From the NCBI RefSeq assembly GCF_003790525.1, contig NZ_CP033633.1: a stretch of 64,000 nt of DNA. One strand, written 5' to 3'. Position numbers and translations under genes: made by a program. Below, one piece after another: positions 6,496 through 64,000 of this stretch. The first letter of the stretch is position 1. The number at the start of each line of letters is the position of its first letter. The notes under the pieces were generated by a model that worked only from the letters and a program-made list of their open reading frames with translations, ran no database searches and was not told the DNA's origin. The DNA comes from Escherichia coli (GTDB taxonomy: Bacteria > Pseudomonadota > Gammaproteobacteria > Enterobacterales > Enterobacteriaceae).

Positions 6496-7386
6496 TCAGG
6501 CTGCCAGATCATCGTTTCCGATGGAAGCATAATAAGCTTTTTCTGCTTCTGCCGGTGGGATATGGCCCAGCCTTTCCAGCAATCGTCGATTGTTATACCA
6601 GTCCACCCACGTGAGTGTGGCCAGCTCCACTTCTGTCCGGTTTTTCCAGCTCTTACGGTGTATTACCTCCGCTTTGTAAAGGCCATTGATGCTCTCCGCC
6701 ATCGCGTTGTCATACGAGTCACCAGTACTTCCTGTTGATGCCAGTAATCCGGCTTCCTTAAGCCGCTGTGTGTAGGCCAGCGATACATACTGAGAACCTT
6801 TATCACTGTGATGGACTGTGCCGGACGGTCGACGGGCCCATAACGCCTGCTCCAGAGCATCCAGCACGAATGTCGTTTCCATAGACGATGAGACCCGCCA
6901 CCCCACGATGTATCCGGCAAACACATCAATGATGAACGCCACATAGACGACCCCCTGCCATGTGCTGACGTAAGTAAAATCAGCCACCCACAACTGGTCA
7001 GGACGTTCTGCCACAAACTGACGGTTTACGCGGTCGCCTGCGGCAACGGCTTTCCGGCTGACGGTAGTGCGGACCTTTTTACCCCGGAGAACACCGGCAA
7101 GTCCCATAACCGCCATGAGGCGCGCCACTGTACATCTGGCTACCCTGATTCCTTCCCGTAACAACTGACGCCAGACTTTACGCACACCATATACCTGATG
7201 ATTCCCATCGTATACGCGCAGTATCTCTTTCTTCAGCCAGTCATCGCGCTGCGCACGGGCACTGCGTTTATAAGGATGATGTCGCTGTTGCTGACAGTGG
7301 TAATACGTTGACGGGGCAATATGTAGTTCACTGCATACCGGTCCGACCCCGTACAGCTTACGCAGCTTATCCAGCAGTGGCATCAC
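6496..7386 (-). CDS. IS629 transposase OrfB
   Basis: 296-aa ORF; DDE integrase core (HSDKGSQY...[15 protein letters not shown]); overlaps orfA as in IS3 family. Confidence 0.85.
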
Positions 7387-7709
7387 TTTTTCCAGAGGCG
7401 GTCGAACTCCGCCTTCGCAAAATAAGCGGAAGCCTGGCGAAGGATATCGTTACTGCGGCGCAGTTCACGATTTTCACGTTCCAGCTCTTTCAGACGCTGA
7501 CGTTCAGCGGTGGTGAGCCCGCCATCACCGCCTCCGGTATCCCGCTCATGCTGGCGTACCCAGACACGCAGAGTCTCCGGTGTACAGCCAATCTTTGGGG
7601 CAATGGAACAAATTGCCGCCCACTGTGAGTCATATTCGCCCTGACTTTCCAGAACCATACGAATCGCCCTCTGACGGACTTCGGGGGAAAAACGAGTATT
7701 TTTAGTCAT
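7383..7709 (-). CDS. IS629 transposase OrfA
   Basis: 108-aa [33 protein letters not shown]... with leucine-zipper tail. Confidence 0.85.
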
Positions 7710-8003
7710 TCTGTTTACCTCTTTATCAGGGAGTTTAGTCTCCAGGATTCCCGGGGCGGTTCAGTTTTCACTCAGCTATGAACAACTGACCCGGTTTGCG
7801 GAACGACGCATCCGGGAATGCAATCTGGACAGCCAGGGCGCGATTTATCTCTGCGAGTCAGCCAAAGCCGGAGCCGTGCTGATCTTCTGGCATGAACTGG
7901 CCATAAATGGCTATACCTCAATGAATGCCATAAAAAGACAGGAGATCATTGACGCCGACCATCAGCGCCTCAGAAAGCTTATCTGGCCGGAGGATGACTG
8001 GAA

Positions 8004-8594
8004 ATGACCCAGAGCCGCCGACCGTCGCCACTGCAACGGAGAGTGCTGATTGTGCTGGCTGCCCTTGATGAAAAACGGCCAGGCCCCGTGCTGACGCGGG
8101 ACATAGAACGGGTGCTGGAGCGAAGCGGGGAAGCCCCGGTCTACGGGCCAAACCTGCGCGCCTCCTGCCGTCGTCTGGAGGATGCCGGATGGCTGCGTAC
8201 CCTGCGCGCTCCGAACCTGCAGCTGGCAGTGGAACTGACGGACGCCGGCCGGGCCGTGGCACAGCCTCTGCTGCTGGCAGAACAGGACCGCCTCCGGGCA
8301 GAACAGCGTGCGGCAGAAGTCGTCGTACTGCCGCTGGTCCCGGCAGCAGGTCTGCCCGCAGACGGCACTTCTGCCACTGATCTGGCGGTGGAGCTGAACG
8401 GCATGACGTATCAGGCCTGCCGCGAGGATTTTGTGGTACGTCTCGACGGCAGCACCTGTCTGCAGTTATGGAATAAAGAAGGCAGGGTGGTACGGCGGGA
8501 GGGCGATCCGCTGGAAGTGGCGCAGTGGCTGCAGGCCTGTCACGATGCCGGAATGGAGGTTCGTGTACAGGTTAATGAAAGCGTCACCCCGTAA
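8004..8594 (+). CDS. hypothetical high-GC protein, possible winged-helix DNA-binding N-terminus
   Basis: 196-aa ORF; start overlaps stop (ATGA) of an upstream gene remnant at 7767-8006 that is cut by IS629. Confidence 0.45.
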   Translation: MTQSRRPSPLQRRVLIVLAALDEKRPGPVLTRDIERVLERSGEAPVYGPNLRASCRRLEDAGWLRTLRAPNLQLAVELTDAGRAVAQPLLLAEQDRLRAEQRAAEVVVLPLVPAAGLPADGTSATDLAVELNGMTYQACREDFVVRLDGSTCLQLWNKEGRVVRREGDPLEVAQWLQACHDAGMEVRVQVNESVTP

Positions 8595-26955: not shown

Positions 26956-27282
26956 ATGACTAAAAATACTCGTTTTTCCCCCGAAGTCCGTCAGAGGGCG
27001 ATTCGTATGGTTCTGGAAAGTCAGGGCGAATATGACTCACAGTGGGCGGCAATTTGTTCCATTGCCCCAAAGATTGGCTGTACACCGGAGACTCTGCGTG
27101 TCTGGGTACGCCAGCATGAGCGGGATACCGGAGGCGGTGATGGCGGGCTCACCACCGCTGAACGTCAGCGTCTGAAAGAGCTGGAACGTGAAAATCGTGA
27201 ACTGCGCCGCAGTAACGATATCCTTCGCCAGGCTTCCGCTTATTTTGCGAAGGCGGAGTTCGACCGCCTCTGGAAAAAGTGA
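26956..27282 (+). CDS. IS629 transposase OrfA
   Basis: Identical protein to 7383-7709. Confidence 0.85.
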
Positions 27283-28169
27283 TGCCACTGCTGGATAAGC
27301 TGCGTAAGCTGTACGGGGTCGGACCGGTATGCAGTGAACTACATATTGCCCCGTCAACGTATTACCACTGTCAGCAACAGCGACATCATCCTTATAAACG
27401 CAGTGCCCGTGCGCAGCGCGATGACTGGCTGAAGAAAGAGATACTGCGCGTATACGATGGGAATCATCAGGTATATGGTGTGCGTAAAGTCTGGCGTCAG
27501 TTGTTACGGGAAGGAATCAGGGTAGCCAGATGTACAGTGGCGCGCCTCATGGCGGTTATGGGACTTGCCGGTGTTCTCCGGGGTAAAAAGGTCCGCACTA
27601 CCGTCAGCCGGAAAGCCGTTGCCGCAGGCGACCGCGTAAACCGTCAGTTTGTGGCAGAACGTCCTGACCAGTTGTGGGTGGCTGATTTTACTTACGTCAG
27701 CACATGGCAGGGGGTCGTCTATGTGGCGTTCATCATTGATGTGTTTGCCGGATACATCGTGGGGTGGCGGGTCTCATCGTCTATGGAAACGACATTCGTG
27801 CTGGATGCTCTGGAGCAGGCGTTATGGGCCCGTCGACCGTCCGGCACAGTCCATCACAGTGATAAAGGTTCTCAGTATGTATCGCTGGCCTACACACAGC
27901 GGCTTAAGGAAGCCGGATTACTGGCATCAACAGGAAGTACTGGTGACTCGTATGACAACGCGATGGCGGAGAGCATCAATGGCCTTTACAAAGCGGAGGT
28001 AATACACCGTAAGAGCTGGAAAAACCGGACAGAAGTGGAGCTGGCCACACTCACGTGGGTGGACTGGTATAACAATCGACGATTGCTGGAAAGGCTGGGC
28101 CATATCCCACCGGCAGAAGCAGAAAAAGCTTATTATGCTTCCATCGGAAACGATGATCTGGCAGCCTGA
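27279..28169 (+). CDS. IS629 transposase OrfB
   Basis: Identical protein to 6496-7386. Confidence 0.85.
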
Positions 28170-40102: not shown

Positions 40103-40447
40103 GATGTCGCCGGCGGCTCCGCTTTACCCGGCCATGCGGGGCATGGCCTTGTGGGTTTTCAACTCTGTAGCCTCAGCGTCGTGTGCGGGCTGTGCCGTGC
40201 CTCCATCGTAGCCGGGCTTCTGCGGGCGGGTTGCAAGGTAAGGTGAACCGCTGCGGTCACCCGGTCCCTCCTTCCCGTCTGCCGTGATTTTCCGGTCGTT
40301 CACCCGCTCAGATTTCGCGGTCTCACCCTCCAACTCCCGTCAGCCGTGTGCGTCAGGCTGCGGCTTCCCTTGCGCCCTTGCAACCCTGCAGGCCCGGCAA
40401 AGATGGAGGCACGGCACCGCCCGGTGTCGCGGAATATGTGAACAACG
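40103..40447 (+). repeat. structured non-coding repeat, family A copy 1 (ssi/Frpo-like candidate)
   Basis: ~345 bp GC-rich, near-identical to 47056-47402; directly upstream of the klcA-like gene. Confidence 0.6.
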
Positions 40448-41744: not shown

Positions 41745-42300
41745 CTTCGGCTCCCGGCTGCCTGGCGGCATCCGGTCGTCAGGCCCGACTCCGACAGGCA
41801 GCTGCTGGCGCACCCGCCAGTCTCCGCCGAACCCGCTGGCGCGGTTTCGGGCTGTCGCTACGGTCCGATGCGTGAAAACCCGGGCTTGCAGCGACCGTTC
41901 CGGTCGCGCCGCCTCTGTCGCGCCGTGACCTGCGCTCCCTGCACACCTGACGGTGTGTGAGGAAACTGCGCCTGATGGCGCAGCAGTCTTCCCTCCTGCC
42001 GCCACCTCTGCGGCCTGTTTCCCGCTGTGGACTTTCCGGGGGGCAGACGTAACCCCCTCCCGTTCCATCTGTCCAGGGTGAGATGCACCGGCCACAAAAT
42101 TTTTAGCCATGAACCCGGCTAAAAATTTTGCGTCCGCCCCCGGACAGCTGTCCCGTGAGGCGGTAAACGGGCCCCCATCGGAAAGGTCCACTGCGGGGAG
42201 AAACCCCTGTGAAGTGGACGGCAGGAGGAGCTTTCGCTCCTCTGAAGGGGCACATGAACGTCCCGTCGCCGGTATCCGGTTTATCTCACATCTTTCAGTC
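41745..42300 (+). repeat. structured non-coding repeat, family B copy 1 (ssi/Frpo-like candidate) upstream of ssb
   Basis: ~555 bp GC-rich, many internal palindromes; paralogous to 48098-48640 and 51470-51850. Confidence 0.6.
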
Positions 42301-43193: not shown

Positions 43194-45151
43194 ATGTCAG
43201 TTACAGAGTCTAAGACAAAAACGGAGCGTAAATCCAGCCGTAAACCTGCAAAAACGCAGGAAACTGCACTGTCTGCCCTGCTGGCGCAGACGGAGGAAGT
43301 GAGCGTGCCGCTGGATTCACTGATTAAATCACCGCTGAATGTGCGCACGGTGCCGTATTCTGCGGAGTCCGTCAGTGAACTGGCTGATTCCATTAAGGGA
43401 GTCGGCCTGCTGCAGAATCTGGTTGTTCATGCCCTGCCAGGTGACCGTTACGGTGTCGCCGCAGGTGGTCGCCGACTGGCAGCACTCAACATGCTGGCAG
43501 AGCGTGACATCATTCAGGCTGACTGGCCTGTCCGCGTGAAAATTATTCCGCAGGAGCTGGCGACGGCTGCATCGATGACCGAGAACGGTCATCGTCGGGA
43601 TATGCACCCTGCCGAACAGATTGCCGGATTCCGCGCAATGGCGCAGGAAGGCAAAACACCTGCGCAAATCGGTGATTTGCTGGGCTATTCACCCCGCCAT
43701 GTCCAGCGAATGCTGAAACTGGCTGACCTTGCGCCTGTCATCCTCGATGCGCTGGCAGAAGACCGCATCACCACCGAACACTGTCAGGCGCTGGCGCTGG
43801 AGAACGACACCGCGCGTCAGGTGCAGGTGTTTGAAGCCGCCTGCCAGTCAGGATGGGGTGGAAAACCGGATGTGCGGGTTATCCGCAACCTGATTACGGA
43901 AAGTGAAGTGGCGGTGAAGGACAACACTAAATTTCGCTTTGTGGGGGCTGATGCTTTCTCGCCTGACGAACTGCGCACCGATTTGTTCAGCGATGACGGG
44001 GACGGTTATGTCGACCGCGTGGCGCTCGATGCCGCCCTGCTGGAAAAACTCCAGGTTGTTGCAGAGTCCCTTCGGGAAGCAGAAGGCTGGGAATGGTGCG
44101 CCGGGCGCATGGAGCCAGTCGGTGAGTGCCGTGAGGATGCCGGAACATACCGCTGTCTGCCGGAGCCGGAAGCGGTGCTGACGGAGGCGGAAGAAGAACG
44201 CCTGAACGAACTGATGACGCGTTACGACGCGCTGGAAAACCAGTGTGAGGAATCCGACCTGCTGGAAGCAGAAATGAAGCTGATGCGCTGCATGGCGAAG
44301 GTCAGAGCGTGGACGCCGGAGATACGTGCCGGAAGCGGTGTGGTGGTGTCCTGGCGTTATGGCAACGTATGTGTCCAGCGTGGTGTGCAGTTGCGCAGTG
44401 AAGATGACGCGACTGACGACGCTGACCGCACGGAACAGGTGCAGGAGAAAGCGTCAGTGGAGGAAATCAGTCTGCCACTGCTGACGAAAATGTCTTCCGA
44501 ACGCACGCTGGCAGTCCAGGCGGCACTGATGCAGCAACCGGACAAATCCCTGACACTGCTGGCATGGACGCTCTGCCTGAATGTGTTTGGCAGCGGAGCG
44601 TACAGTAAACCAGCACAAATCAGCCTGGAATGTAAACATTATTCGCTGACCAGCGATGCGCCGTCAGGGAAGGAAGGTGCCGCATTCATGGCGCTGATGG
44701 CAGAAAAAGCCCGTCTTGCGGCCCTGTACCGGAGGGATGGTCACGGGACATGACGACATTCCTTTCACTCAGTCAGGAGGTGCTGTTATCCCTGCTCAGT
44801 TTCTGCACCGCGTGCAGCATCCACGGCGTTCAGACCCGCGAGTGTGGTCACACGTCACGCAGCCCGCTGGACACGCTGGAGAGCGCCATCGGTTTTCACA
44901 TGCGCGACTGGTGGCAGCCGACAAAAGCAAACTTCTTCGGACACCTGAAAAAGCCGCAGATTATCGCAGCCCTGAATGAGGCAGGACTGTCCGGTGCCGC
45001 ACGGGACGCGGAGAAGATGAAGAAAGGCGATGCGGCTGAACATGCAGAGTTCCATATGAAAGACAACCGCTGGGTGCCTGGCTGGATGTGTGCACCACGT
45101 CCACAGACGGATACCACTGAACGCACTGATAACCTGGCTGATGCCGCCTGA
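43194..45151 (+). pseudogene. ParB-like nuclease-domain protein (leading-region ParB/YubM-like) split by a frameshift near 44750
   Basis: ORFs 43194-44753 (519 aa, ParB/Srx-like motif ...VAAGGRRLAAL...) and 44750-45151 (133 aa) together span the ~650 aa expected. Confidence 0.65.
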
Positions 45152-47055: not shown

Positions 47056-47402
47056 GGACGTCGCCGGCGGCTCCGCTTTTACCCGGCCATGCGGGGCATG
47101 GCCTTGTGGGTTTTCAGGTATGAAGCCATCGTGTCGTGTGCGGGCTGTGCCGTGCCTCCATCGTAGCCGGGCTTCTGCGGGCGGGATGCAAAGGTACGCT
47201 TCGCCGCTGCGGTCACCCGGTCCCTCCTTCCCGTCTGCCGTGATTTTCCGGTCGTTCACCCGCTCAGATTTCGCGGTCTCACCCTCCAACTCCCGTCAGC
47301 CGTGCGCGTCGGGCTGCGGCTTTCCTTGCGCCCTTGCATCCCTGCAGGCCCGGCAAGGATGGAGGCACGGCACCGCCCGGTGCCGCAGAACATGTGACTA
47401 TG
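47056..47402 (+). repeat. structured non-coding repeat, family A copy 2 (ssi/Frpo-like candidate) upstream of ardA
   Basis: Near-identical to 40103-40447. Confidence 0.6.
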
Positions 47403-47414
47403 GAGGATTCGGGA

Positions 47415-47915
47415 ATGTCTGTTGTTGCACCTGCTGTATACGTTGGAACCTGGCACAAATACAACTGCGGAAGCATCGCCGGACGCTGGTTTGACCTGAC
47501 CACGTTTGATGATGAACGCGATTTTTTCGCCGCCTGCCGTGCCCTTCACCAGGATGAAACCGATCCGGAACTGATGTTTCAGGATTATGAGGGATTCCCG
47601 GGGAATATGGCCTCTGAATGTCATATCAACTGGGCCTGGGTTGAAGGCTTCCGCCGGGCGCGGGATGAAGGCTGCGAAGAGGCTTATCGTCTCTGGGTGG
47701 ATGATACCGGTGAGACGGATTTTGACACCTTCCGCGATGCCTGGTGGGGCGAGGCTGACAGTGAGGAGGCTTTTGCGGTTGAGTTCGCCAGTGATACCGG
47801 CCTGCTGGCTGGCGTGCCGGAGACGGTGGCGCTCTATTTTGACTATGAGGCGTATGCGCGGGATTTATTCCTGGACTCCTTCACCTTTATTGACGGTCAT
47901 GTGTTCCGTCGGTGA
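47415..47915 (+). CDS. ardA: ArdA antirestriction protein (DNA mimic)
   Basis: 166 aa from ATG 47415: MSVVAPAVYVGTWHKYNCGSIAGRWFDLTTFDDERDFFAACRALHQDE...; highly acidic. Confidence 0.85.
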   Translation: MSVVAPAVYVGTWHKYNCGSIAGRWFDLTTFDDERDFFAACRALHQDETDPELMFQDYEGFPGNMASECHINWAWVEGFRRARDEGCEEAYRLWVDDTGETDFDTFRDAWWGEADSEEAFAVEFASDTGLLAGVPETVALYFDYEAYARDLFLDSFTFIDGHVFRR

Positions 47916-48097
47916 TTTACTCCCCCGCTCCGGCGGGGGTATGGCCTGCCGGGCCGCCGGAAAACCCTGGCAGGCTTACGCCTGCCTGAAATGCAGGAGG
48001 GCCGCGCCTGCGGCGCTGCCCTTCCTGCCCGTCATGGTGTGAGGCATTTTTCTGTTATGTCGTTTCTGTTGTTCTGATTTCCGGAGGCGGGGACACC

Positions 48098-48640
48098 CTT
48101 CGGCTCCCGGCTGCCTGGCGGCATCCGGTCGTCAGGCCCGACTCCGACAGGCAGCTGCTGGCGCACCCGCCAGTCTCCGCCGAACCCGCTGGCGCGGTTT
48201 CGGGCTGCCGCTACGGTCCGATGTCTGAAAAACCAGGCCTGCAGCGACCGTTCCGGTCGCGCCGCCCCTGTCGCGCCGGAAACGGCGCTCCCTGCACACC
48301 TGACGGTGTGTAAGGCCACTGCGCCTGATGGCGCAGTTGTCTGCCCTTCCGCCGCCACCCCTGCGGCCTGTTTCCCGCTGTGGACTTTCCGGGGGCTGAA
48401 GCGGCCACAACACGTTTCAGCCGTCCAGGGGAGAGATGTACCAGCCACAAAACTTTTTGCCGCAGGCGTCAAAAACTTTTGCGTCTGCCCCCGGACAACT
48501 GCCCCGTGCCGTGGCAGTCGCTGCCCCATCGGAAAGGTCCACTGCGGGGAGAAACCCCGAAGAAGTGGACGGCAGAAGGGGCTTTCGCCCCTCCGGGGAA
48601 TAACCGGTCGGCCCGGCGACCTGATTCAGCAGAAGGAGAC
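48098..48640 (+). repeat. structured non-coding repeat, family B copy 2
   Basis: Paralogue of 41745-42300. Confidence 0.6.
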
Positions 48641-48646
48641 GTTTTC

Positions 48647-49081
48647 ATGACAGTCAGCAGCACGATTTCCGTTTTTTGCCGAGACGGGGTGTTCCGTACC
48701 GTTTACTGCCACCTGCACGGTGAGCCGACCTGGAACGGTCGCATCCTGCATACCCACTATGCCACCGGTCAGCTGGCCGAAGCCCTGGTTGAACACGGAG
48801 ATATCCGTTGCCTCGGTCCCCGTTGCGACAAACCCGCCGGGCATACGCTTCAGAACCCGGTGGACGGTGTGACGGCTTATTACGGACGTGACAGTGGTTT
48901 CCGGATGGACAGTGAAGCGCGTGAGTACCGCTCTTTCAGGGAGGCTATTGCCACTGAAAGCACAGAAGAGGTGCGCTTCCATTATGTGTTCATCGACGGC
49001 TACTGGAAGGTGATGTACCGCACGCCGGAAGGCTGGAAGATGAAAGCGCTCGCGCTGGCACTGCGTCGCTGTCCGGAATGA
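48647..49081 (+). CDS. hypothetical leading-region protein (Cys/His-containing)
   Basis: 144 aa from ATG 48647 (MTVSSTISVFCRDGVFRTVYCHLHGEPTWNGR...); SD aggaga 9 nt upstream. Confidence 0.55.
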   Translation: MTVSSTISVFCRDGVFRTVYCHLHGEPTWNGRILHTHYATGQLAEALVEHGDIRCLGPRCDKPAGHTLQNPVDGVTAYYGRDSGFRMDSEAREYRSFREAIATESTEEVRFHYVFIDGYWKVMYRTPEGWKMKALALALRRCPE

Positions 49082-49173
49082 AAAAAAGCAGGGCGATAAA
49101 CCCTGCCTTTCTCCGCCGGCGCTTCCCCGTACGGAAGTCCGGCATCTCATTCACTAACTATGGAGATTATGCT

Positions 49174-49440
49174 ATGAGGCCATCAATTATCTTCGCAACC
49201 GCCGAGTATGTAAAGCGTCTGCGTGAAGAGTGCCGGCGGGAGAACAAACCCCTGCACCGCCATACCCGCTTCAGACGCCAGGAACTGGCACCGGATGAGA
49301 TTAACCCGGACGTCCTGGCGATGGGCGGTCATATCGCCAGACGCTGCAGTGAGCGGAAGCGGGTGCGTATCCCCGCCATGAAAGTCAGCGAATGGGGCCA
49401 CCTGCTCCGCGCGCTTGAAATTGAGCGGGTCTGCCACTGA
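49174..49440 (+). CDS. hypothetical basic small protein
   Basis: 88 aa from ATG 49174 (MRPSIIFATAEYVKRLREE...); SD ggaga upstream. Confidence 0.45.
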   Translation: MRPSIIFATAEYVKRLREECRRENKPLHRHTRFRRQELAPDEINPDVLAMGGHIARRCSERKRVRIPAMKVSEWGHLLRALEIERVCH

Positions 49441-49504
49441 TTAACCCTTGCCGTCTGCCTGTGCAGGCGGCAGGATACGTTCAGACATCTCACCAGGAGG
49501 AACC

Positions 49505-50467
49505 GTGAGTAAGAAGAAAACCACCACGACGCCCACGCCGCATGATGCCGCGTTCCGGTCGTTCCTGGCGAACCCCGACGTCGCCAGAGATTTTCTGGAA
49601 CTGCATCTTCCGGCGGAGTACCGGCAGTTGTGCGACCTGTCCACGCTGAAGCTGGAACCCGCCACCTTTGTTGAGCCGGACCTGCATCAGTACGCCAGCG
49701 ATATCCTCTGGAGTGTGAAAACCACCGGGGGTGAAGACGGCTATATTTATACGCTCATCGAGCACCAGAGCACCGAAAATCTGTACATGCCTTTCCGCAT
49801 GTTACGTTACAGTGTGGCGGCGATGCAGAGACATCTGGAGCAGCACAAAACATTGCCACTGGTGATTCCGGTGCTGTTCTATCATGGTGAGCGCAGCCCG
49901 TACCCGTACAGCATGAACTGGCTGGACTGTTTTGAGGATCCGGCGCTTGCGGCTAAAATATACACAAAGCCGTTTCCGCTGGTTGATATCACTGTCGTTG
50001 ATGACAATGAAATCATGAACCATCGCCGGATGGCCGCACTGACGCTGCTGATGAAGCATATCCGCCATCGTGACATGATGGAGCTGCTGGACAAACTCCC
50101 GCAGGTCATGGTGGAAATTTCAGACGAGCAGGTGCGTGTTCTGATTCATTACATCGTTAACGCAGGGGACTCTGTATCACCGGAATTTATGCGGGCGCTG
50201 GCTGAGCGTCTGCCGCAGCATGAGGATAAACTGATGACTATTGCCGAACGTCTTGAGCAGCAAGGAATACAGAAAGGAATACAGCAGGGAATACAGCAGG
50301 GAATACAGCAGGGAATACAGCAGGGAATACAGCAGGGAATACAGAAAGGCCGCATGGAGGAGAAGCAGGATATTGCGCGTCAGCTTCAGAAAACGGGAAT
50401 GCCATCTGCACAAATCTGTCAGATCACCGGACTTTCCGAAGCTGAACTGAAGAACATCACTCACTGA
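49505..50467 (+). CDS. Rpn-family (YhgA-like, PD-(D/E)XK) recombination-promoting nuclease with repeat-containing C-terminal tail
   Basis: GTG start with SD caggagga; N-terminal HDAAFRSFL...DFLELHLP...IEHQS...FRMLRYS motifs; C-terminal GIQ[QK] x7 repeat then conserved tail. Confidence 0.75.
   Translation: MSKKKTTTTPTPHDAAFRSFLANPDVARDFLELHLPAEYRQLCDLSTLKLEPATFVEPDLHQYASDILWSVKTTGGEDGYIYTLIEHQSTENLYMPFRMLRYSVAAMQRHLEQHKTLPLVIPVLFYHGERSPYPYSMNWLDCFEDPALAAKIYTKPFPLVDITVVDDNEIMNHRRMAALTLLMKHIRHRDMMELLDKLPQVMVEISDEQVRVLIHYIVNAGDSVSPEFMRALAERLPQHEDKLMTIAERLEQQGIQKGIQQGIQQGIQQGIQQGIQQGIQKGRMEEKQDIARQLQKTGMPSAQICQITGLSEAELKNITH
50234..50467 (+). CDS. putative intragenic small ORF (RpnS-like) from an internal in-frame SD+ATG within the Rpn gene
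   Basis: gagga-N7-ATG at 50234; product MTIAERLEQQ(GIQx)n...TGLSEAELKNITH parallels the two stand-alone downstream cassettes. Confidence 0.4.
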   Translation: MTIAERLEQQGIQKGIQQGIQQGIQQGIQQGIQQGIQKGRMEEKQDIARQLQKTGMPSAQICQITGLSEAELKNITH

Positions 50468-50475
50468 TGAGAACC

Positions 50476-50506
50476 ACAAAGCCCGGCAAAATGCCGGGTT
50501 TTTTTG
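50476..50506 (+). terminator. hairpin + T-run after the Rpn gene
   Basis: aagcccggcaaaatgccgggttttttt. Confidence 0.6.
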
Positions 50507-50529
50507 TCAGCAGGAGCAGAGCAAACAGT

Positions 50530-50703
50530 ATGACGATTGCAGAACGTCTTGAGCAAAAAGGTCGCCAGGAGGGCAGGATGGAAGGTGCGCTTGAAAAAGC
50601 CCTGGCTATTGCGTGCCAGCTTCAGAAAATGGGGATGACGCCGGAGCAGATTAAGCAGGCTACCGGACTGTCCGAAGCTGAACTGAAAAAAATCATTCAC
50701 TGA
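50530..50703 (+). CDS. stand-alone Rpn C-terminal-tail paralogue (orphan RpnS-like cassette 1)
   Basis: 57 aa MTIAERLEQKGRQEGRMEGALEKALAIACQLQKMGMTPEQIKQATGLSEAELKKIIH; own SD and ATG. Confidence 0.5.
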   Translation: MTIAERLEQKGRQEGRMEGALEKALAIACQLQKMGMTPEQIKQATGLSEAELKKIIH

Positions 50704-50714
50704 TGAGAGCATCA

Positions 50715-50743
50715 CAGCCCGGAAGAATGCCGGGCTTTTTTGC
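50715..50743 (+). terminator. hairpin + T-run after cassette 1
   Basis: cagcccggaagaatgccgggctttttt. Confidence 0.6.
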
Positions 50744-50761
50744 CAGCAGGGGCAGAGCAGT

Positions 50762-50992
50762 ATGACTATTGCAGAACGTCTTATACAGAAAGGTTTCGAC
50801 GAAGGTTTTAAAGAAAGTTTTAAAGAAAGTTTTAAAGAAGGCTTTAAAGAAGGCTTTAAAGAAGGGGCGCTTGAAGTGGCGCGGGAAATAGCCTGCCGGC
50901 TGCGGGATATAGGCTGGCCGCCGGAACGGATTCAGGAGGTCACGGGACTTTCCGGTGAAGAACTGAAAAAGCTGTTTCCTGATGAGCAGTAG
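50762..50992 (+). CDS. stand-alone Rpn C-terminal-tail paralogue (orphan RpnS-like cassette 2) with FKE[SG] repeats
   Basis: 76 aa MTIAERLIQKGFDEGFKESFKESFKEGFKEGFKEGALEVAREIACRLRDIGWPPERIQEVTGLSGEELKKLFPDEQ. Confidence 0.5.
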   Translation: MTIAERLIQKGFDEGFKESFKESFKEGFKEGFKEGALEVAREIACRLRDIGWPPERIQEVTGLSGEELKKLFPDEQ

Positions 50993-51469: not shown

Positions 51470-51850
51470 TTTTCTCCGGTCGCGCCGGATGCGGCGCTCC
51501 CTGCACACCTGACGGTGTGTAAGGCCACTGCGCCTGATGGCGCAGCTGTCTCTGCCTGTCTGCCGCCGCACTGCGGCCCGTTCTCCGCAGACGAACTTTC
51601 CGGGGGTACATACACGACCACATCCCGTTTCAGTCGTCCAGGGGAGAGATGTACCAGCCACAAAACTTTTTGCCGCAGGCGTCAAAAACTTTTGCGTCTG
51701 CCCCCGGACAACTGCCCCGTGACGTGGTGAGCGTCCCCCGTCGGAAAGGTCCACTGCGGGGAAATCCCCGAAGACCCGGACGGCAGAAGGAGCTTCGCTC
51801 CTCCGGGAAATGACCTGGCTGACCCGGCAGTCGTGACGATGAGGAGACAA
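51470..51850 (+). repeat. structured non-coding repeat, family B copy 3 (5'-truncated)
   Basis: Collinear with the 3' ~380 bp of 48098-48640. Confidence 0.55.
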
Positions 51851-53139: not shown

Positions 53140-53350
53140 GTTTCATGTTGAAGTCTGATTTTATCATCAAAAACTGACTCCTGGCAGGGCTGCGCCCTGC
53201 CTCTGCCGTCTGCATAAGACTATGATGCACAAAAATAACAGGCTATAATGGCCTGAAAAACGGGACAGGATGTGTAATCGTATAACCGCGCACGCACGGC
53301 TATACGATTACCACCTGGTCAGGGCTTTGCCCCGACACCCTGGTAAGGAG
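53140..53350. promoter_or_regulatory. candidate origin of transfer (oriT) with inverted repeats, upstream of nikA-like gene
   Basis: IR GGCAGGGC-TGC-GCCCTGCC (53183-53201) and perfect 11-bp IR GTAATCGTATA-N14-TATACGATTAC (53273-53308). Confidence 0.4.
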
Positions 53351-53356
53351 CAGACC

Positions 53357-53689
53357 ATGAGTGAGAAGAAAAACCGAAGTGGTAGTGAGAAACGGCAAAA
53401 GAATGTCCTCATTGCTGTTCGTTTTTCACCAGAAGAGGCTGATATTGTTAAAGAAAAGGCAGAAAAAAACGGACTGACAGTTTCAACTCTGATAAGAAAA
53501 ACTGTGCTGGGAAAACAGATAAATGCCCGCATTGACGAAGATTTTTTGAAAGAGCTGATGCGTCTTGGTCGCCTGCAGAAGCATCTGTTTGTGGAAGGAA
53601 AACGCACGGGAGATAAAGAGTATGCAGAGGTTCTCGTTGCTATTACAGAACTTGCTAATACTCTGCGAAGAGATTTAATGGGACGCTGA
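53357..53689 (+). CDS. nikA: relaxosome accessory protein (NikA/MbeC-like ribbon-helix-helix)
   Basis: 110 aa; MSEKKNRSGSEKRQKNVLIAVRFSPEEADIVKEKAEKNGLTVSTLIRK...; immediately precedes the relaxase. Confidence 0.65.
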   Translation: MSEKKNRSGSEKRQKNVLIAVRFSPEEADIVKEKAEKNGLTVSTLIRKTVLGKQINARIDEDFLKELMRLGRLQKHLFVEGKRTGDKEYAEVLVAITELANTLRRDLMGR

Positions 53690-53700
53690 GATAATCGCTG

Positions 53701-56403
53701 ATGAATGCCATCATTCCGAAAAAAAGACGCGACGGAAAGTCTTCTTTTGAAGACCTGATTGCGTACACCTCAGTGCGGGATGATGTGCCGGAAGATGAAC
53801 TCAGGCCAGACACGGAAATGAAAGCTGAGATTCCGCACCGGAACCGCTTCAGACGTCTTGTTGATTATGCAACACGTCTGCGTAATGAAAAATTTGTTTC
53901 CCTGATTGATGTGATGAAAGACGGCAGTCAGTGGGTGAATTTCTATGGTGTGACCTGCTTTCATAACTGTTTGTCTCTTGAATCTGCGGCTGAAGAAATG
54001 CAGAAAGCAGCAGACCTTGCTCATTTTTCCAAAGATGATACAGATCCTGTTTTTCACTATATTCTCTCCTGGCCTGCGCACGAAAGTCCGCGTTCTGAGC
54101 AGCTTTTTGACTGTGTGCGTCACACCCTGAAATCCCTTGAGCTGTCAAAACATCAGTATGTGGCAGCCGTTCATACAGACACGGATAACCTGCATGTACA
54201 TGTTGCAGTGAATCGTGTCCACCCTGAAACCGGCTATATCAATTGCCTTCCGTGGAGCCAGGAAAAACTCAGCCGTGCATGTCGTGAACTTGAACTTAAG
54301 CACGGATTCGCGCCTGATAATGGCTGCTTTGTGCATGCACCCGGCAACCGTATTGTGCGCAAAACAGCGCTGGTACGTGAGCGCCGTAATGCCTGGCGAC
54401 GCGGGAAAAAGCAGACGTTCAGGGAATATATTGCGCAGATGTCGATTGCCGGGCTGCGTGAAGAGCCCGCACAGGACTGGTTATCTTTGCATAAACGGCT
54501 GGCCAGTGATGGTCTGTATATCACGATGCAGGAAGGGGAACTGGTGGTGAAGGATGGCTGGGACAGAGCGCGGGAAGGTGTTGCACTCAGTTCGTTCGGA
54601 CCGTCATGGACAGCTGAAAAACTGGGGCGGAAACTGGGGGAATATCAGCCTGTACCGACAGATATTTTCAGTCAGGTGGGGGCACCCGGTCGTTATGATC
54701 CGGAAGCCATTAACGTGGATATCCGGCCGGAAAAAGTGGCAGAAACGGAGAGTCTGAAACAGTACGCCTGTCGTCACTTTGCTGAACGCTTACCGAAAAT
54801 GGCGCGAAATGGTGAACTGAAAAGTTGCCTGGCTGTACACCGTACTCTGGCAGAGGCGGGATTATGGATGGGGATTCAGCACGGGCATCTGGTACTGCAT
54901 GATGGATTTGAACCACAGCAGACGCCGGTTCGTGCAGACAGTATATGGCCGTTGTTAACGCTGGAAAATATCAGAAAACTGAATGGCGGCTGGCAGTCTG
55001 TACCGAAGGATATTTTTACTCAGGTTGTACCACAAAGTCGCTTTAGTGGGCATCGAATGGATATGCATCCGGTCAGTGATCATGAATGGCACAGAATGAG
55101 AACAGGGGCTGGCCCACAGGGGGCAATTAAGCGGGAGATTTTCTCTGACAAAGAGAGTCTGTGGGGATATGCAGTCAGCCATTGTGCCCGTGATATTCAG
55201 TACATGATCTCTGAAGGGCGCTTTAGCTGGCAGAACTGCCATGAACTGTTTGCCCGCAGTGGACTGATGTTACAGAAACTGCATCATGGTCTTGTGATTG
55301 TGGATGCGTTTAATCATGACCAGACACCGGTTAAAGCCAGCAGCATTCATCCGGATTTGACTTTGTCCAGAGCAGAGCCGCAGGCCGGGCCATTTGAAAT
55401 TGCAGCGGCGGATATTTTCGATCGGGTGAAGCCTGAAAGCCGTTATAACCCTGATATGGCTGTCAGTGACAGTAAGGAACCCGGGTTTAAACGGGATCCT
55501 GAATTGCGCCGCCGTCGTCGTGAAACCCGTGCAGCTGCGCGGGAAGATTTACGTGCGCGTTACCTTGCATGGAAGGAGCACTGGCGTAAACCCGATTTAC
55601 GTTACGGCGAACGGTTACGGGAAGTTCATGCTGCCTGCCGCCGGCGCAAGGCGCATATCCGCGTACAGTTCAGGGATCCGCAAGTGCGTAAGCTGCATTA
55701 CCATATTGCGGAAGTGCAGCGAATGCAGGCGCTGATCAGGCTGAAGGAAAGCGTCAGGGAAGAGCGACTGTCGCTGATGGCGGAAGGTAAGTGGTACCCG
55801 CTGTCTTACAGGCAGTGGGTGGAGCAGATGGCGGTTCAGGGGGATTCTGCTGCTGTATCTCAGTTACGTGGATGGAATTATCGCGACAGAAGGAATGATG
55901 AGGTGCTTTTAACCACGCCTCAACGCTGTGTGGTTCTTTGTGAACCAGGCTCCACCCCGATTCACAGGGATATCGGTGGCATGGTGGCGACTTTGCAGCG
56001 TAATGGCAGTGTGCGTTTCCGTGATGCGACAACAGGAGAGTACGTCTGTACAGATTATGGTGATCGCGTTGTTTTCAGCAACAGTGCCGATAACAAAACA
56101 CTGAAGAAAAGGATGGTCAGGGTGTCCAGTGTGCTTTTTGCAAGGGATCCCCGAATGGGGTTTGAGCCGGAAGGTCAGGATGCACAATTTAACCGTATGT
56201 TTGCTGATATGGTTGCGTGGAAAAACGTGCAGCGGGATGAGCGTAAGGGGCACTACAGGATAAGTCGTTCTGATGTTGATCAACTGAGGGTCAGTAGTGA
56301 AAAACGTTTTCGTGATTATCTTAAAGGGCGTGATACTGAATCACACACTTACCATCATGCAACGGATGAAAATAAGTGGGAGCCGCCATCACCGGGGATG
56401 TAA
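53701..56403 (+). CDS. nikB: MOBP-type conjugative relaxase (NikB-like)
   Basis: 900 aa; relaxase His-triad motif AAVHTDTDNLHVHVAVNRV in N-terminal domain; size and context match IncI1 NikB. Confidence 0.75.
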   Translation: MNAIIPKKRRDGKSSFEDLIAYTSVRDDVPEDELRPDTEMKAEIPHRNRFRRLVDYATRLRNEKFVSLIDVMKDGSQWVNFYGVTCFHNCLSLESAAEEMQKAADLAHFSKDDTDPVFHYILSWPAHESPRSEQLFDCVRHTLKSLELSKHQYVAAVHTDTDNLHVHVAVNRVHPETGYINCLPWSQEKLSRACRELELKHGFAPDNGCFVHAPGNRIVRKTALVRERRNAWRRGKKQTFREYIAQMSIAGLREEPAQDWLSLHKRLASDGLYITMQEGELVVKDGWDRAREGVALSSFGPSWTAEKLGRKLGEYQPVPTDIFSQVGAPGRYDPEAINVDIRPEKVAETESLKQYACRHFAERLPKMARNGELKSCLAVHRTLAEAGLWMGIQHGHLVLHDGFEPQQTPVRADSIWPLLTLENIRKLNGGWQSVPKDIFTQVVPQSRFSGHRMDMHPVSDHEWHRMRTGAGPQGAIKREIFSDKESLWGYAVSHCARDIQYMISEGRFSWQNCHELFARSGLMLQKLHHGLVIVDAFNHDQTPVKASSIHPDLTLSRAEPQAGPFEIAAADIFDRVKPESRYNPDMAVSDSKEPGFKRDPELRRRRRETRAAAREDLRARYLAWKEHWRKPDLRYGERLREVHAACRRRKAHIRVQFRDPQVRKLHYHIAEVQRMQALIRLKESVREERLSLMAEGKWYPLSYRQWVEQMAVQGDSAAVSQLRGWNYRDRRNDEVLLTTPQRCVVLCEPGSTPIHRDIGGMVATLQRNGSVRFRDATTGEYVCTDYGDRVVFSNSADNKTLKKRMVRVSSVLFARDPRMGFEPEGQDAQFNRMFADMVAWKNVQRDERKGHYRISRSDVDQLRVSSEKRFRDYLKGRDTESHTYHHATDENKWEPPSPGM

Positions 56404-57375: not shown

Positions 57376-57702
57376 ATGACTAAAAATACTCGTTTTTCCC
57401 CCGAAGTCCGTCAACGGGCAGTTCGTATGGTTCTGGAAAGCCAGGGCGAATATGACTCACAATGGGCGGCAATTTGTTCCATTGCTCCAAAGATTGGCTG
57501 TACGCCAGAGACCCTGCGTGTCTGGGTTCGCCAGCATGAGCGGGATACCGGGGGCGGTGATGGTGGGCTCACCACCGCTGAACGTCAGCGTCTGAAAGAG
57601 CTGGAACGCGAAAATCGTGAACTGCGCCGCAGTAACGATATCCTTCGCCAGGCTTCCGCTTATTTTGCGAAGGCGGAGTTCGACCGCCTCTGGAAAAAAT
57701 AA
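57376..57702 (+). CDS. IS629 transposase OrfA (variant)
   Basis: 108 aa, one substitution relative to copies 1 and 2. Confidence 0.8.
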
Positions 57703-58095
57703 TGCCACTGCTGGATAAGCTGCGTGAGCTGCAGTGAGCTGCATATTGCCCCGTCAACGTATTACCACTGTCAGCAACAGCAGCATCATCCTGATAAACG
57801 CAGCGCCCGTGCGCAGCGTGATGACTGGCTGAAGAAAGAGATACAGCGCGTATACGATGAAAATCACCAGGTGTACGGTGTGCGTAAAGTCTGGCGTCAG
57901 TTGTTACGGGAAGGTATCAGAGTGGCCAGATGCACTGTGACACGTCTTATGGCGGTTATGGGTTTTGCCGATGTTCTCCGGGGTAAAAGGTCCGCATTAC
58001 CGTCAGCCGGAAAGCCGTTGCCGCAGGCGACCGCGTAAACCGTCATTTCGTGGCAGAACGTCCTGACCAGCTGTGGGTGGCTGATTTTACTTACG

Positions 58096-60835
<2,740 letters not shown>

Positions 60836-63438: not shown

Positions 63439-64000
63439 TTATGCCGTGCGCACAGTCATAAGAAGCTCATGCAGAAAGCATGTAAATTTTTTAAGACGCA
63501 GATATATAAGGTATTTTCGCCATTCTGCGAGGGGAAAACTCGTAAGTTTCATAACACAAAAATTGTACGGGTAATCCGAAGGTAAAAATAACGTACCTCA
63601 ATCACCAGCTACTGGTGACATCCGTTTCCAGAGGCTAAACGGATGTTGCCGCCATACAGGCATCCTCTTCCAGGCTCATGGGATATTGCAGTCACCCGAA
63701 GGCGCTTCTCTCAGACCTCCGGGAGATTGGTTGGTCGCCGGAGCGACAGATATTCAAAAGGCATTTTGCTCCATGAGAACAAAAAATCAACAGTATTCTA
63801 GACAAGGAACCGGAGACAGGCTAAAAAAACTGTGGGCGCGTTTCTGGCAGTCAAGAAAACCATGGGGTTAGTAAGATTATGCAACAGGAGCCAGGAACGC
63901 GTTCCGCTTCTTCTGTAAGAGGCGCTCAGAATGTGCTTAATGCTTCTTTTAATGGTATCAGAGATGAACGGGCCTGAGTCATTCCGGCAGGTTATAGCGT

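Follow-up and report, generated by a model that had tools for sequence, protein, structure and literature searches.

What do two small genes do for a conjugative plasmid in the first minutes after its DNA has entered a new cell? The question is raised by positions 48,647 to 49,440 of a 64,000-nucleotide stretch of Escherichia coli DNA (contig NZ_CP033633.1; hereafter the window). This stretch is the leading region of an IncI-complex plasmid, with 99-100% identity to IncK2/Z and related plasmids. The two genes, ydfA (open reading frame 1, ORF1) and ydfB (ORF2), follow one another behind a single-strand promoter, ydfA lying between ardA and the origin of transfer (oriT). IncI and IncF plasmids are major carriers of resistance genes, among them those for extended-spectrum β-lactamases (ESBL); whether their transfer succeeds is decided in the first minutes after entry. 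A sequence-only reading of the window had presented the pair as unknown genes and as candidates for anti-defence functions. They prove to be already named, ydfA/ydfB or Hp16/Hp17, and catalogued among the gene families of leading regions. On balance we lean to the view that they are the first two genes of a unit driven by the promoter ssi2 and act as transient establishment factors, most likely in counter-defence.

The ydfA-ydfB pair and its single-strand promoter

ydfA occupies 48647..49081 on the plus strand, from ATG to TGA, and encodes a 144-residue protein with five Cys, seven His and an isoelectric point (pI) of 7.05. Its Shine-Dalgarno sequence, AAGGAG, is read at 48633..48638 (plus strand). 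That translation begins at ATG 48647 follows from the family alignment, in which the N-terminus (M-x-T-x-S-x-I-x-V) can be matched, from the first residue on and position by position, to those of 73 distant homologs. ydfB, at 49174..49440 on the same strand, also runs from ATG to TGA and codes for an 88-residue protein with 20 Lys plus Arg and a pI of 10.4; its Shine-Dalgarno sequence GGAGA is read at 49163..49167 (plus strand). A longer in-frame form of 120 amino acids starts at 49078, in an ATGA overlap with the ydfA stop codon. The homologs on plasmids of IncF, Serratia and Enterobacter begin at the short start, whose codon is GTG in R64. Sequence and ORF list confirm what the earlier reading had said of the layout: the positions of both genes, their good Shine-Dalgarno sequences and their common orientation with ardA, psiB and ssb. 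In the ORF list the ParB-like gene, psiB, psiA and ardA are on the plus strand like the pair; the orientation of ssb is taken from collinearity with locus L001.

The relaxosome genes nikA and nikB lie to the right of the pair, at 53270-56403, so that the minus strand is the transferred one and the template for all plus-strand leading genes. Directly ahead of ydfA the sequence-only reading had noticed an ssi-like element, the second copy of a repeat family, which turns out to be a genuine ssi2/Frpo2 by its identity to ColIb-P9 and by its fold. This class 1 single-stranded DNA (ssDNA) promoter hairpin, at 48268..48595 on the minus strand, has 88.8% identity to ColIb-P9 Frpo2/ssi2 over 326 nt and 87.3% to Frpo1, and the minus strand of 48200-48646 folds much better than shuffled sequences (z = -8.45). 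The match ends 52 nt 5' of the ydfA start. The repeat before ydfA spans 48098-48593 and is one of three copies in the window, the other two being ssi1 at 51479-51805 (98.8%) and ssi3 at 41915-42245 (99.7%). ydfA and ydfB are located between promoter and oriT and point toward oriT. Class 1 Frpo/ssi operons have a Frpo homolog directly upstream and the transferred strand as template; the pair has both. Read on the transferred strand, ssi2 would drive rightward transcription into ydfA.

The core of this element (48402-48514) shares 96% identity with part of the window's own ssi1 copy (51615-51727) and its flanks match ColIb-P9 ssi2. The element before ydfA looks therefore like an ssi1/ssi2 recombinant.

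R64 and pESBL-EA11 have the order psiB, psiA, an ORF, ardA, ssi2, the 144-residue gene, the 88-residue gene, an optional gene for 129 residues, rpn, a helix-turn-helix (HTH) gene, ssi1, DUF4942, oriT and nikAB. In the window plasmid too, ydfB is separated from the DUF4942/YdiA gene by Rpn, the HTH gene and ssi1. RNA sequencing and 5' rapid amplification of cDNA ends (RACE) in pESBL transconjugants revealed strong induction of six operons in the leading region, of which three follow ssi1-3 (PMC12672017). These three class 1 promoters were mapped by 5' RACE; the class is the strongest in pESBL, and ssi promoters shut off by themselves once the DNA is double-stranded (PMC12672017). The layout ssi2-ydfA-ydfB is the same in pESBL as in the window and, by analogy with the ssi-driven operons of this syntenic plasmid, YdfA and YdfB would be made transiently in the new host during the first minutes after DNA entry.

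Both ORFs are real coding genes under purifying selection. The ratio of non-synonymous to synonymous substitution rates (dN/dS) is 0.07-0.18 for ydfA and 0.11-0.24 for ydfB, a range shared with ardA and psiB. Synonymous changes outnumber non-synonymous ones in ydfB, and the five changes that distinguish its first 13 codons from those of plasmid L002 all fall in third codon positions.

The ydfA coding sequence has been exchanged as a cassette. In IncI-like plasmids of three assemblies (L002-L004, positions 8001-8432) it is 51-63% identical to that of the window, and its flanks are 96-100% identical. The swap covers window positions 48639-49050, breaking right after the Shine-Dalgarno hexamer, which forms the left boundary of the cassette, and ending about 30 nt before the stop codon. 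The synonymous rate (dS) is 2.4 inside ydfA versus about 0.07 in ardA and psiB, and dN/dS is 0.18. Such saturation, together with the low ratio, points to exact replacement by an anciently diverged homolog and not to rapid local evolution; rapid positive selection was rejected on the same grounds as the cause of the difference between alleles. Relatives of the two ORFs that seemed divergent, at 61-83% identity (P0093, P0082, P0021), were discarded as assemblies with internal frameshifts.

The spacer between the two genes is 100% identical in plasmids carrying the two divergent ydfA alleles. Its fold (49076-49180, -34.8 kcal/mol, z = -2.81) contains two small RNA hairpins on the plus strand, at 49088-49106 and 49115-49143. 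No intrinsic terminator was called at these hairpins (49088..49143), which are candidates for a transcript stabiliser, a processing site or a weak attenuator.

The YdfA and YdfB families

ORF1 takes the name YdfA from a plasmid relative in a phage record and is Hp16 in pESBL. The gene is shared with R64 and pESBL and carried by about 2,015 plasmids. The statement that neither ORF can be assigned to a family from its sequence holds for the curated libraries: no match to either was found in Pfam, NCBIfam, PADLOC or PDB sequences. The only library matches of YdfA are PHROG 1987 and 23089 (E ~1e-20), both without assigned function. The AlphaFold2 (AF2) model of YdfA is a compact α/β domain of high confidence, with a predicted local distance difference test score (pLDDT) of 96.5 and a predicted template modelling score (pTM) of 0.90. 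This confidently modelled fold matches none of the solved PDB structures, and the family profile is likewise without match in the PDB. All 163 of its AFDB50 neighbours are uncharacterised or labelled 'PndC'. Remote-homology searches and structure prediction, run for both proteins, disclosed no homology to a housekeeping or structural family.

A word-based search found only close plasmid relatives of YdfA, and exhaustive HMMER searches (phmmer) were used for the distant ones. At E <= 0.001 the family comprises 1,836 representative clusters. The AFDB50 neighbours span Proteobacteria, Firmicutes, Bacteroidota, Cyanobacteria, the candidate phyla radiation (CPR) and archaea. Members occur in more than 561 viral contigs, and the phages carrying them include jumbo phages (GAP32, BF, CBB group), Vibrio nt-1-like phages, Caulobacter giant phages and T4-like cyanophages. 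Judged from its sequences, the family is large and restricted to mobile elements, namely conjugative elements and large phages, across many phyla.

Near-invariant positions of the family alignment are M1, T3, I7, Y20, H22, D24-G25, G31, L34 and Y38 in the N-terminal half and G51, S54, H66, Y79, R81-D82, Y113 and W120 in the rest. The polar residues conserved across phyla are T3, S5, Y20, H22, D24, H66, Y79, R81 and D82. The allele of the window keeps Y20, H22, H66, Y79, R81 and D82 and has V3, H24 and R54 at three near-invariant positions. In the other IncI allele (P0113), positions 3 and 24 have the canonical Thr and Asp.

The neighbours of YdfA-family genes were clustered in 80 loci, many of them in conjugative elements, from diverse bacterial and archaeal genomes. 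ArdC-like genes and VirB4-type ATPases are each found beside the family in 31 of these loci, and DUF1281 in 20, always co-oriented. A DNA methylase of the R64/M.EcoGIX type (phmmer 2e-76 to the R64 enzyme) follows in 17 loci, at a median distance of 295 bp downstream; two of the 17 genes are the exceptions to co-orientation. C5 methylases are found in seven loci (median 16 bp), and N6 methylases of the type present in Serratia and Enterobacter leading regions in six. Family genes often adjoin orphan DNA methylases. SSB, relaxases and integrases were counted in 8, 9 and 11 loci, respectively; among the 49 loci with a length of 8 kb or more, 34 have markers of conjugation or anti-restriction. 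A Salmonella relative with 43% identity to YdfA sits among ArdC genes.

The association with ArdC extends to gene fusion. In two Clostridia metagenome-assembled genomes (L048 5959-9573, L051 515-4129) a YdfA-family domain forms the N-terminus of a 1,204-residue polyvalent protein, followed by ArdC-N, a metallopeptidase, a P-loop NTPase and a primase-like domain. The domains of such proteins have been argued to work jointly at the very start of an invasion (Iyer, Burroughs, Anand, de Souza and Aravind 2017, PMC5512222). ArdC genes are also frequent neighbours of stand-alone YdfA-family genes. In the window plasmid the domain is a stand-alone gene, which would be transcribed in the recipient and not delivered as part of a polyprotein. 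The domain has no match to Pfam families, including those associated with polyvalent proteins (LPD), and no mention of it by name was found in PMC5512222.

Two Pfam matches were set aside as noise or unsupported, each made by one of 74 family members: Acb3 (E = 0.05) and PsaF (E = 3e-4). A family of 259-residue neighbours (L031 10602-11402, L079 10923-11702 and five other Firmicutes loci) starts with MTRGxIxxxxPxG...EFNGDMY..GGYG. This resembles the N-terminal YdfA motif, and these proteins may be distant paralogs.

ORF2 is Hp17 in pESBL, 'YdfB' or 'YdaB' on related plasmids and YdaB/YgdA in the IncF nomenclature. Searches with tblastn found its family in more than 5,000 plasmids, about 2,000 of them of IncI type with more than 90% identity and more than 3,000 of IncF and other Enterobacterales types with about 45%. 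A profile search collected 501 clusters, all from Enterobacterales, some of them named YdfB or YdaB; like that of YdfA, this large family is restricted to mobile elements. The core conserved in an alignment of 41 members (R32, R35, G51-R-H-I-A55, V64-R-I-P-A-M69, S72-E-W-G75 and L78-R-x-L-E82) is present in ORF2, which is a member of the YdaB/YdfB/YgdA family. No structural difference separates it from the family; its identity is 92-97% with the IncI cluster representatives and 40-48% with members in other plasmid groups of the Enterobacterales.

The YdfB family ranks first in the published survey of leading regions, with 4,739 members at a median position of 6 from oriT (PMC11541004 Suppl. 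Table 1), and is the largest leading-region-enriched family catalogued so far. It is oriented for expression from the transferred strand and labelled 'Uncharacterized' (Samuel et al. 2024, PMC11541004). DIAMOND and Foldseek found no match between it and the anti-CRISPR or anti-restriction sets of the survey (PMC11541004). Family genes are typically first or second behind Frpo elements and directly upstream of leading-region DNA methylases. On IncF plasmids the gene comes first behind a second ssiD-like element and is followed by DUF3560 and an S-adenosylmethionine (SAM) methyltransferase; on Serratia and Enterobacter plasmids it lies immediately upstream of an N6-methylase. BLASTP detected no similarity between these N6-methylases and the DUF4942 gene of the window. 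The AF2 model of YdfB has three helices at a pLDDT of 61, a helical prediction of low confidence that suggests folding on a partner.

Candidate roles in the recipient

We regard YdfA and YdfB as factors that would be conditionally useful for establishment, outside the machinery of transfer or maintenance. For such factors a counter-defence role is plausible from the genomic context. The anti-defence proposal of the sequence-only reading finds partial backing in the leading-region setting, the ssi2 promoter, the enriched families, the company of ArdC, DUF1281, SSB and methylase genes in other phyla and the occurrence of the YdfA family in large phages. The early IncI and IncF leading-region proteins ArdA, KlcA/ArdB and PsiB share with the pair the region, the strand, the size class and probably expression from single-strand promoters on entering DNA. 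They are also listed with it among the leading-region-enriched families, and each of them is, like YdfA and YdfB, dispensable for transfer into K-12 in pESBL transposon sequencing (Tn-seq). In sequence and fold they are dissimilar to it, and neither the neutral YdfA nor the strongly basic YdfB looks like an acidic DNA mimic such as ArdA.

The polar residues invariant across phyla suggest that YdfA has an enzymatic, small-ligand or nucleic-acid site and is not a fast-evolving inhibitor of protein-protein type. YdfA would bind or process a universal molecule, either an immune signal or cofactor of nucleotide type or a DNA or RNA end, and this target would matter both for conjugative DNA and for large double-stranded DNA (dsDNA) phages. 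The phage enzymes and sponges of immune signals Acb1, Apyc1, Acb2 and Tad1/Tad2 offer a functional analogy only: like them, YdfA is small, soluble and encoded by mobile elements, also in early regions of large phages, and its polar and aromatic motif would be compatible with nucleotide binding. No fold or sequence similarity links YdfA to these proteins or to any solved structure. The basic charge of YdfB, its probably partner-dependent folding and the adjacency to methylases suggest an adaptor that binds nucleic acid or an enzyme. YdfB could be an adaptor or regulator whose partner is nucleic acid or an enzyme at work on the incoming DNA.

A more detailed picture can be drawn, tentatively, and we consider it doubtful as a whole. 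YdfA would be a counter-defence module of unsolved fold shared by conjugative elements, jumbo phages and T4-like cyanophages, whose His/Asp/Arg/Tyr site binds or destroys an immune signal, a cofactor or a nucleic-acid intermediate; YdfB, the commonest leading-region protein of enterobacterial plasmids, would be an adaptor for nucleic acid or an enzyme and be required for establishment in defended hosts; and the swap of the ydfA cassette would switch between variants of different host-target specificity.

Several points weigh against counter-defence. The window carries the dominant IncI allele of ydfA, with the changes T3V, D24H and S54R, so that any catalytic function may be altered or lost in this copy. 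Phage neighbourhoods of the family (80 viral loci) consist only of families of unknown function, the YdfB model is of low confidence, and neither protein resembles a known anti-defence protein in sequence or fold, be it an anti-restriction or anti-CRISPR protein, an SOS inhibitor or a sponge or nuclease of immune signals. According to published Tn-seq, pESBL needs neither gene to be maintained or to be transferred into E. coli K-12, with values (non-essential/maintenance/transfer) of 0.76/0.24/0.00 for Hp16 and 1.00/0/0 for Hp17. ArdA, PsiB and Ssb have similar values there, and the equal dispensability of ardA and psiB means that Tn-seq speaks neither for nor against an anti-defence role. Transposons are reported to be inserted in ydfA of some IncI1 plasmids (PMC9412624).

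The alternative that survives best, which we nevertheless judge unlikely, is that YdfA and YdfB assist the incoming single strand without opposing any defence. They would do so, for example, through priming or second-strand synthesis, through protection of ssDNA or its methylation as accessory factors of methylases, or through recircularisation. Such a role would suit the position of the YdfA family next to M.EcoGIX/R64-type and C5 methylases and near SSB, its fusion to ArdC, which binds ssDNA, and to a primase-like domain, and the placement of the YdfB family immediately upstream of N6-methylases or of DUF3560 and the SAM methyltransferase. ssi/Frpo transcripts also prime DNA synthesis (PMC7736820), and YdfB is very basic. 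YdfA has many homologs in large dsDNA phages, whose DNA does not enter the cell single-stranded, and this argues against a role limited to ssDNA entry; in addition, no methylase adjoins ydfB in the window plasmid and both genes are dispensable for transfer in Tn-seq. Since methylation by leading-region methylases is itself counter-restriction, assistance of this kind merges in part with the counter-defence explanation.

It is less probable still that YdfB, possibly with YdfA, is a leading-region regulator that tunes the ssi-driven burst or modulates host transcription. YdfB is small, basic and helical, its gene follows a Frpo element in IncI and IncF plasmids, as the first or the second one, and leading-region regulators are known in other plasmids (PMC10104558, discussion). 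One of five family members gave a weak Pfam match to the HU-type DNA-binding domain HU-CCDC81 (E = 7e-4), a fold that the all-helical AF2 model, devoid of β-strands, does not support; Pfam-type and profile searches of YdfB detected no HTH, ribbon-helix-helix (RHH) or other DNA-binding family. A dedicated repressor is moreover not required for promoters that switch themselves off on double-stranding (PMC12672017).

That one or both ORFs are non-functional, as chance ORFs or decaying hitch-hikers of a recombination-prone region, is very improbable. Many database entries are truncated or frameshifted, transposons lie in ydfA of some plasmids and neither gene is needed in Tn-seq. Against this stand the purifying selection (dN/dS 0.07-0.24), the conservation of motifs, maintained at 40-45% identity across plasmid groups in YdfB and across phyla in YdfA, the very confident YdfA model, and the finding that the 'divergent' variants are frameshifted assemblies.

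There remains the name in the databases. RefSeq and UniRef call YdfA 'post-segregation killing protein PndC', and its family, rank 23 in the survey of leading regions with 2,203 members at a median position of 7 from oriT, one position further than the rank-1 family, is entered as 'PndC (Hok/Sok TA related)' (PMC11541004 Suppl. Table 1), TA standing for toxin-antitoxin. Apart from this shared label, nothing favours the idea that YdfA is the mok-like leader frame of the pnd post-segregational killing system of Hok/Sok type, which has next to no chance of being right and is refuted by position and anatomy: the true IncI pnd locus adjoins trbA on the lagging side of oriT, at a distance of some 12 kb, with its Hok/Gef gene at 75000-75152 in R64 and 79824-79976 in pESBL; the real PndC is a 68-codon frame that overlaps pndA at 79766-79969 in pESBL (PMC4288162 Table 2; PMC9412624); no Hok/Gef-like ORF overlaps or follows ydfA in the ORF list, YdfB being basic, soluble and without Pfam match; no antisense RNA of Sok type or other relevant Rfam match was found in the window at the gathering threshold or in 47900-49700 at E <= 1; and YdfA is a 144-residue globular protein whose homologs occur in cyanophages, Firmicutes and archaea lacking hok. 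A PndC/Mok-type leader differs from YdfA in its locus, length, architecture and taxonomic spread. The 'PndC' label of the ydfA family is a misnomer that has propagated into the published classification of leading regions. Its removal brings the family, which is among the top 25, back to the uncharacterised candidates.

The genes, their families, their enrichment in leading regions and the generic proposal of a likely anti-defence function were already known. New here are the correction of the PndC label, the distribution across phyla and phages together with a fold lacking a solved relative, the ArdC fusion, the methylase adjacency, the swap of the ydfA cassette and the conserved placement of YdfB behind Frpo elements. 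The cross-phylum spread, ArdC fusions, methylase adjacency and polar motif provide concrete, testable hypotheses on residues, ligands and partners. Should one of the two proteins turn out to inactivate a host defence or to be required in defended recipients, it would offer a new point of attack against the spread of plasmids; in the case of YdfA, the mechanism would be shared with large phages.

Other features of the leading region

The next gene downstream of ydfB, co-oriented at 49505..50467 (plus strand), codes for an Rpn-family nuclease, annotated as Rpn in L001, R64 and pESBL. It is probably the distal part of the ssi2 transcription unit; a terminator-like site is located at 50716-50736 on the plus strand. 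Within the Rpn region (49505-50992) a (QGIQ)n repeat encoded at about 50240-50330 lies near the carboxyl terminus of the protein. Two stand-alone ORFs 3' of the gene, at 50467-50703 (78 amino acids) and 50762-50992 (76 amino acids), duplicate the C-terminal tail of Rpn, and the motif MTIAERL is found in both and also inside Rpn. These short products resemble the small tail proteins encoded within rpn genes, for which the role of intragenic antitoxins has been described.

Some IncI plasmids have between ydfB and rpn an extra gene of 129 codons, Hp18 of pESBL, whose product has a pI of 4.4 and nine Cys. It is found at 16517-16906 in pESBL (L100), at 6441-6830 in L011 and at 537-926 in L012, and is absent from the window and from R64. 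This gene is a further variable cassette of the transcription unit to which ydfA and ydfB belong.

The ParB-like gene yfhA, coding for 652 residues in R64 and L001, is split in the window (43194-45151) into frames of 519 and 133 residues with a break at about 44726. The frame is broken by a 1-bp deletion, within a TT run, that sets the window apart from R64 and L001; either a sequencing error or a genuine adaptive mutation may account for it.

A second repeat family has copies at 40123-40441 and 47078-47397, 92-94% identical to each other; one lies upstream of ardA and the other about 7 kb further from oriT. The ardA-proximal copy shares 88% identity with an IncF segment (L014 4499-4817) that ends about 20 bp upstream of an antirestriction gene of KlcA type. 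This family fits the 'class 2' single-strand promoters described upstream of klcA and ardA (PMC12672017).

Elsewhere in the window, Rfam matches correspond to three ALIL pseudoknots, a group II intron catalytic domain and a STAXI RNA, located at 7312-7428, 27237-27353, 57657-57743, 60279-60365 and 63591-63748.

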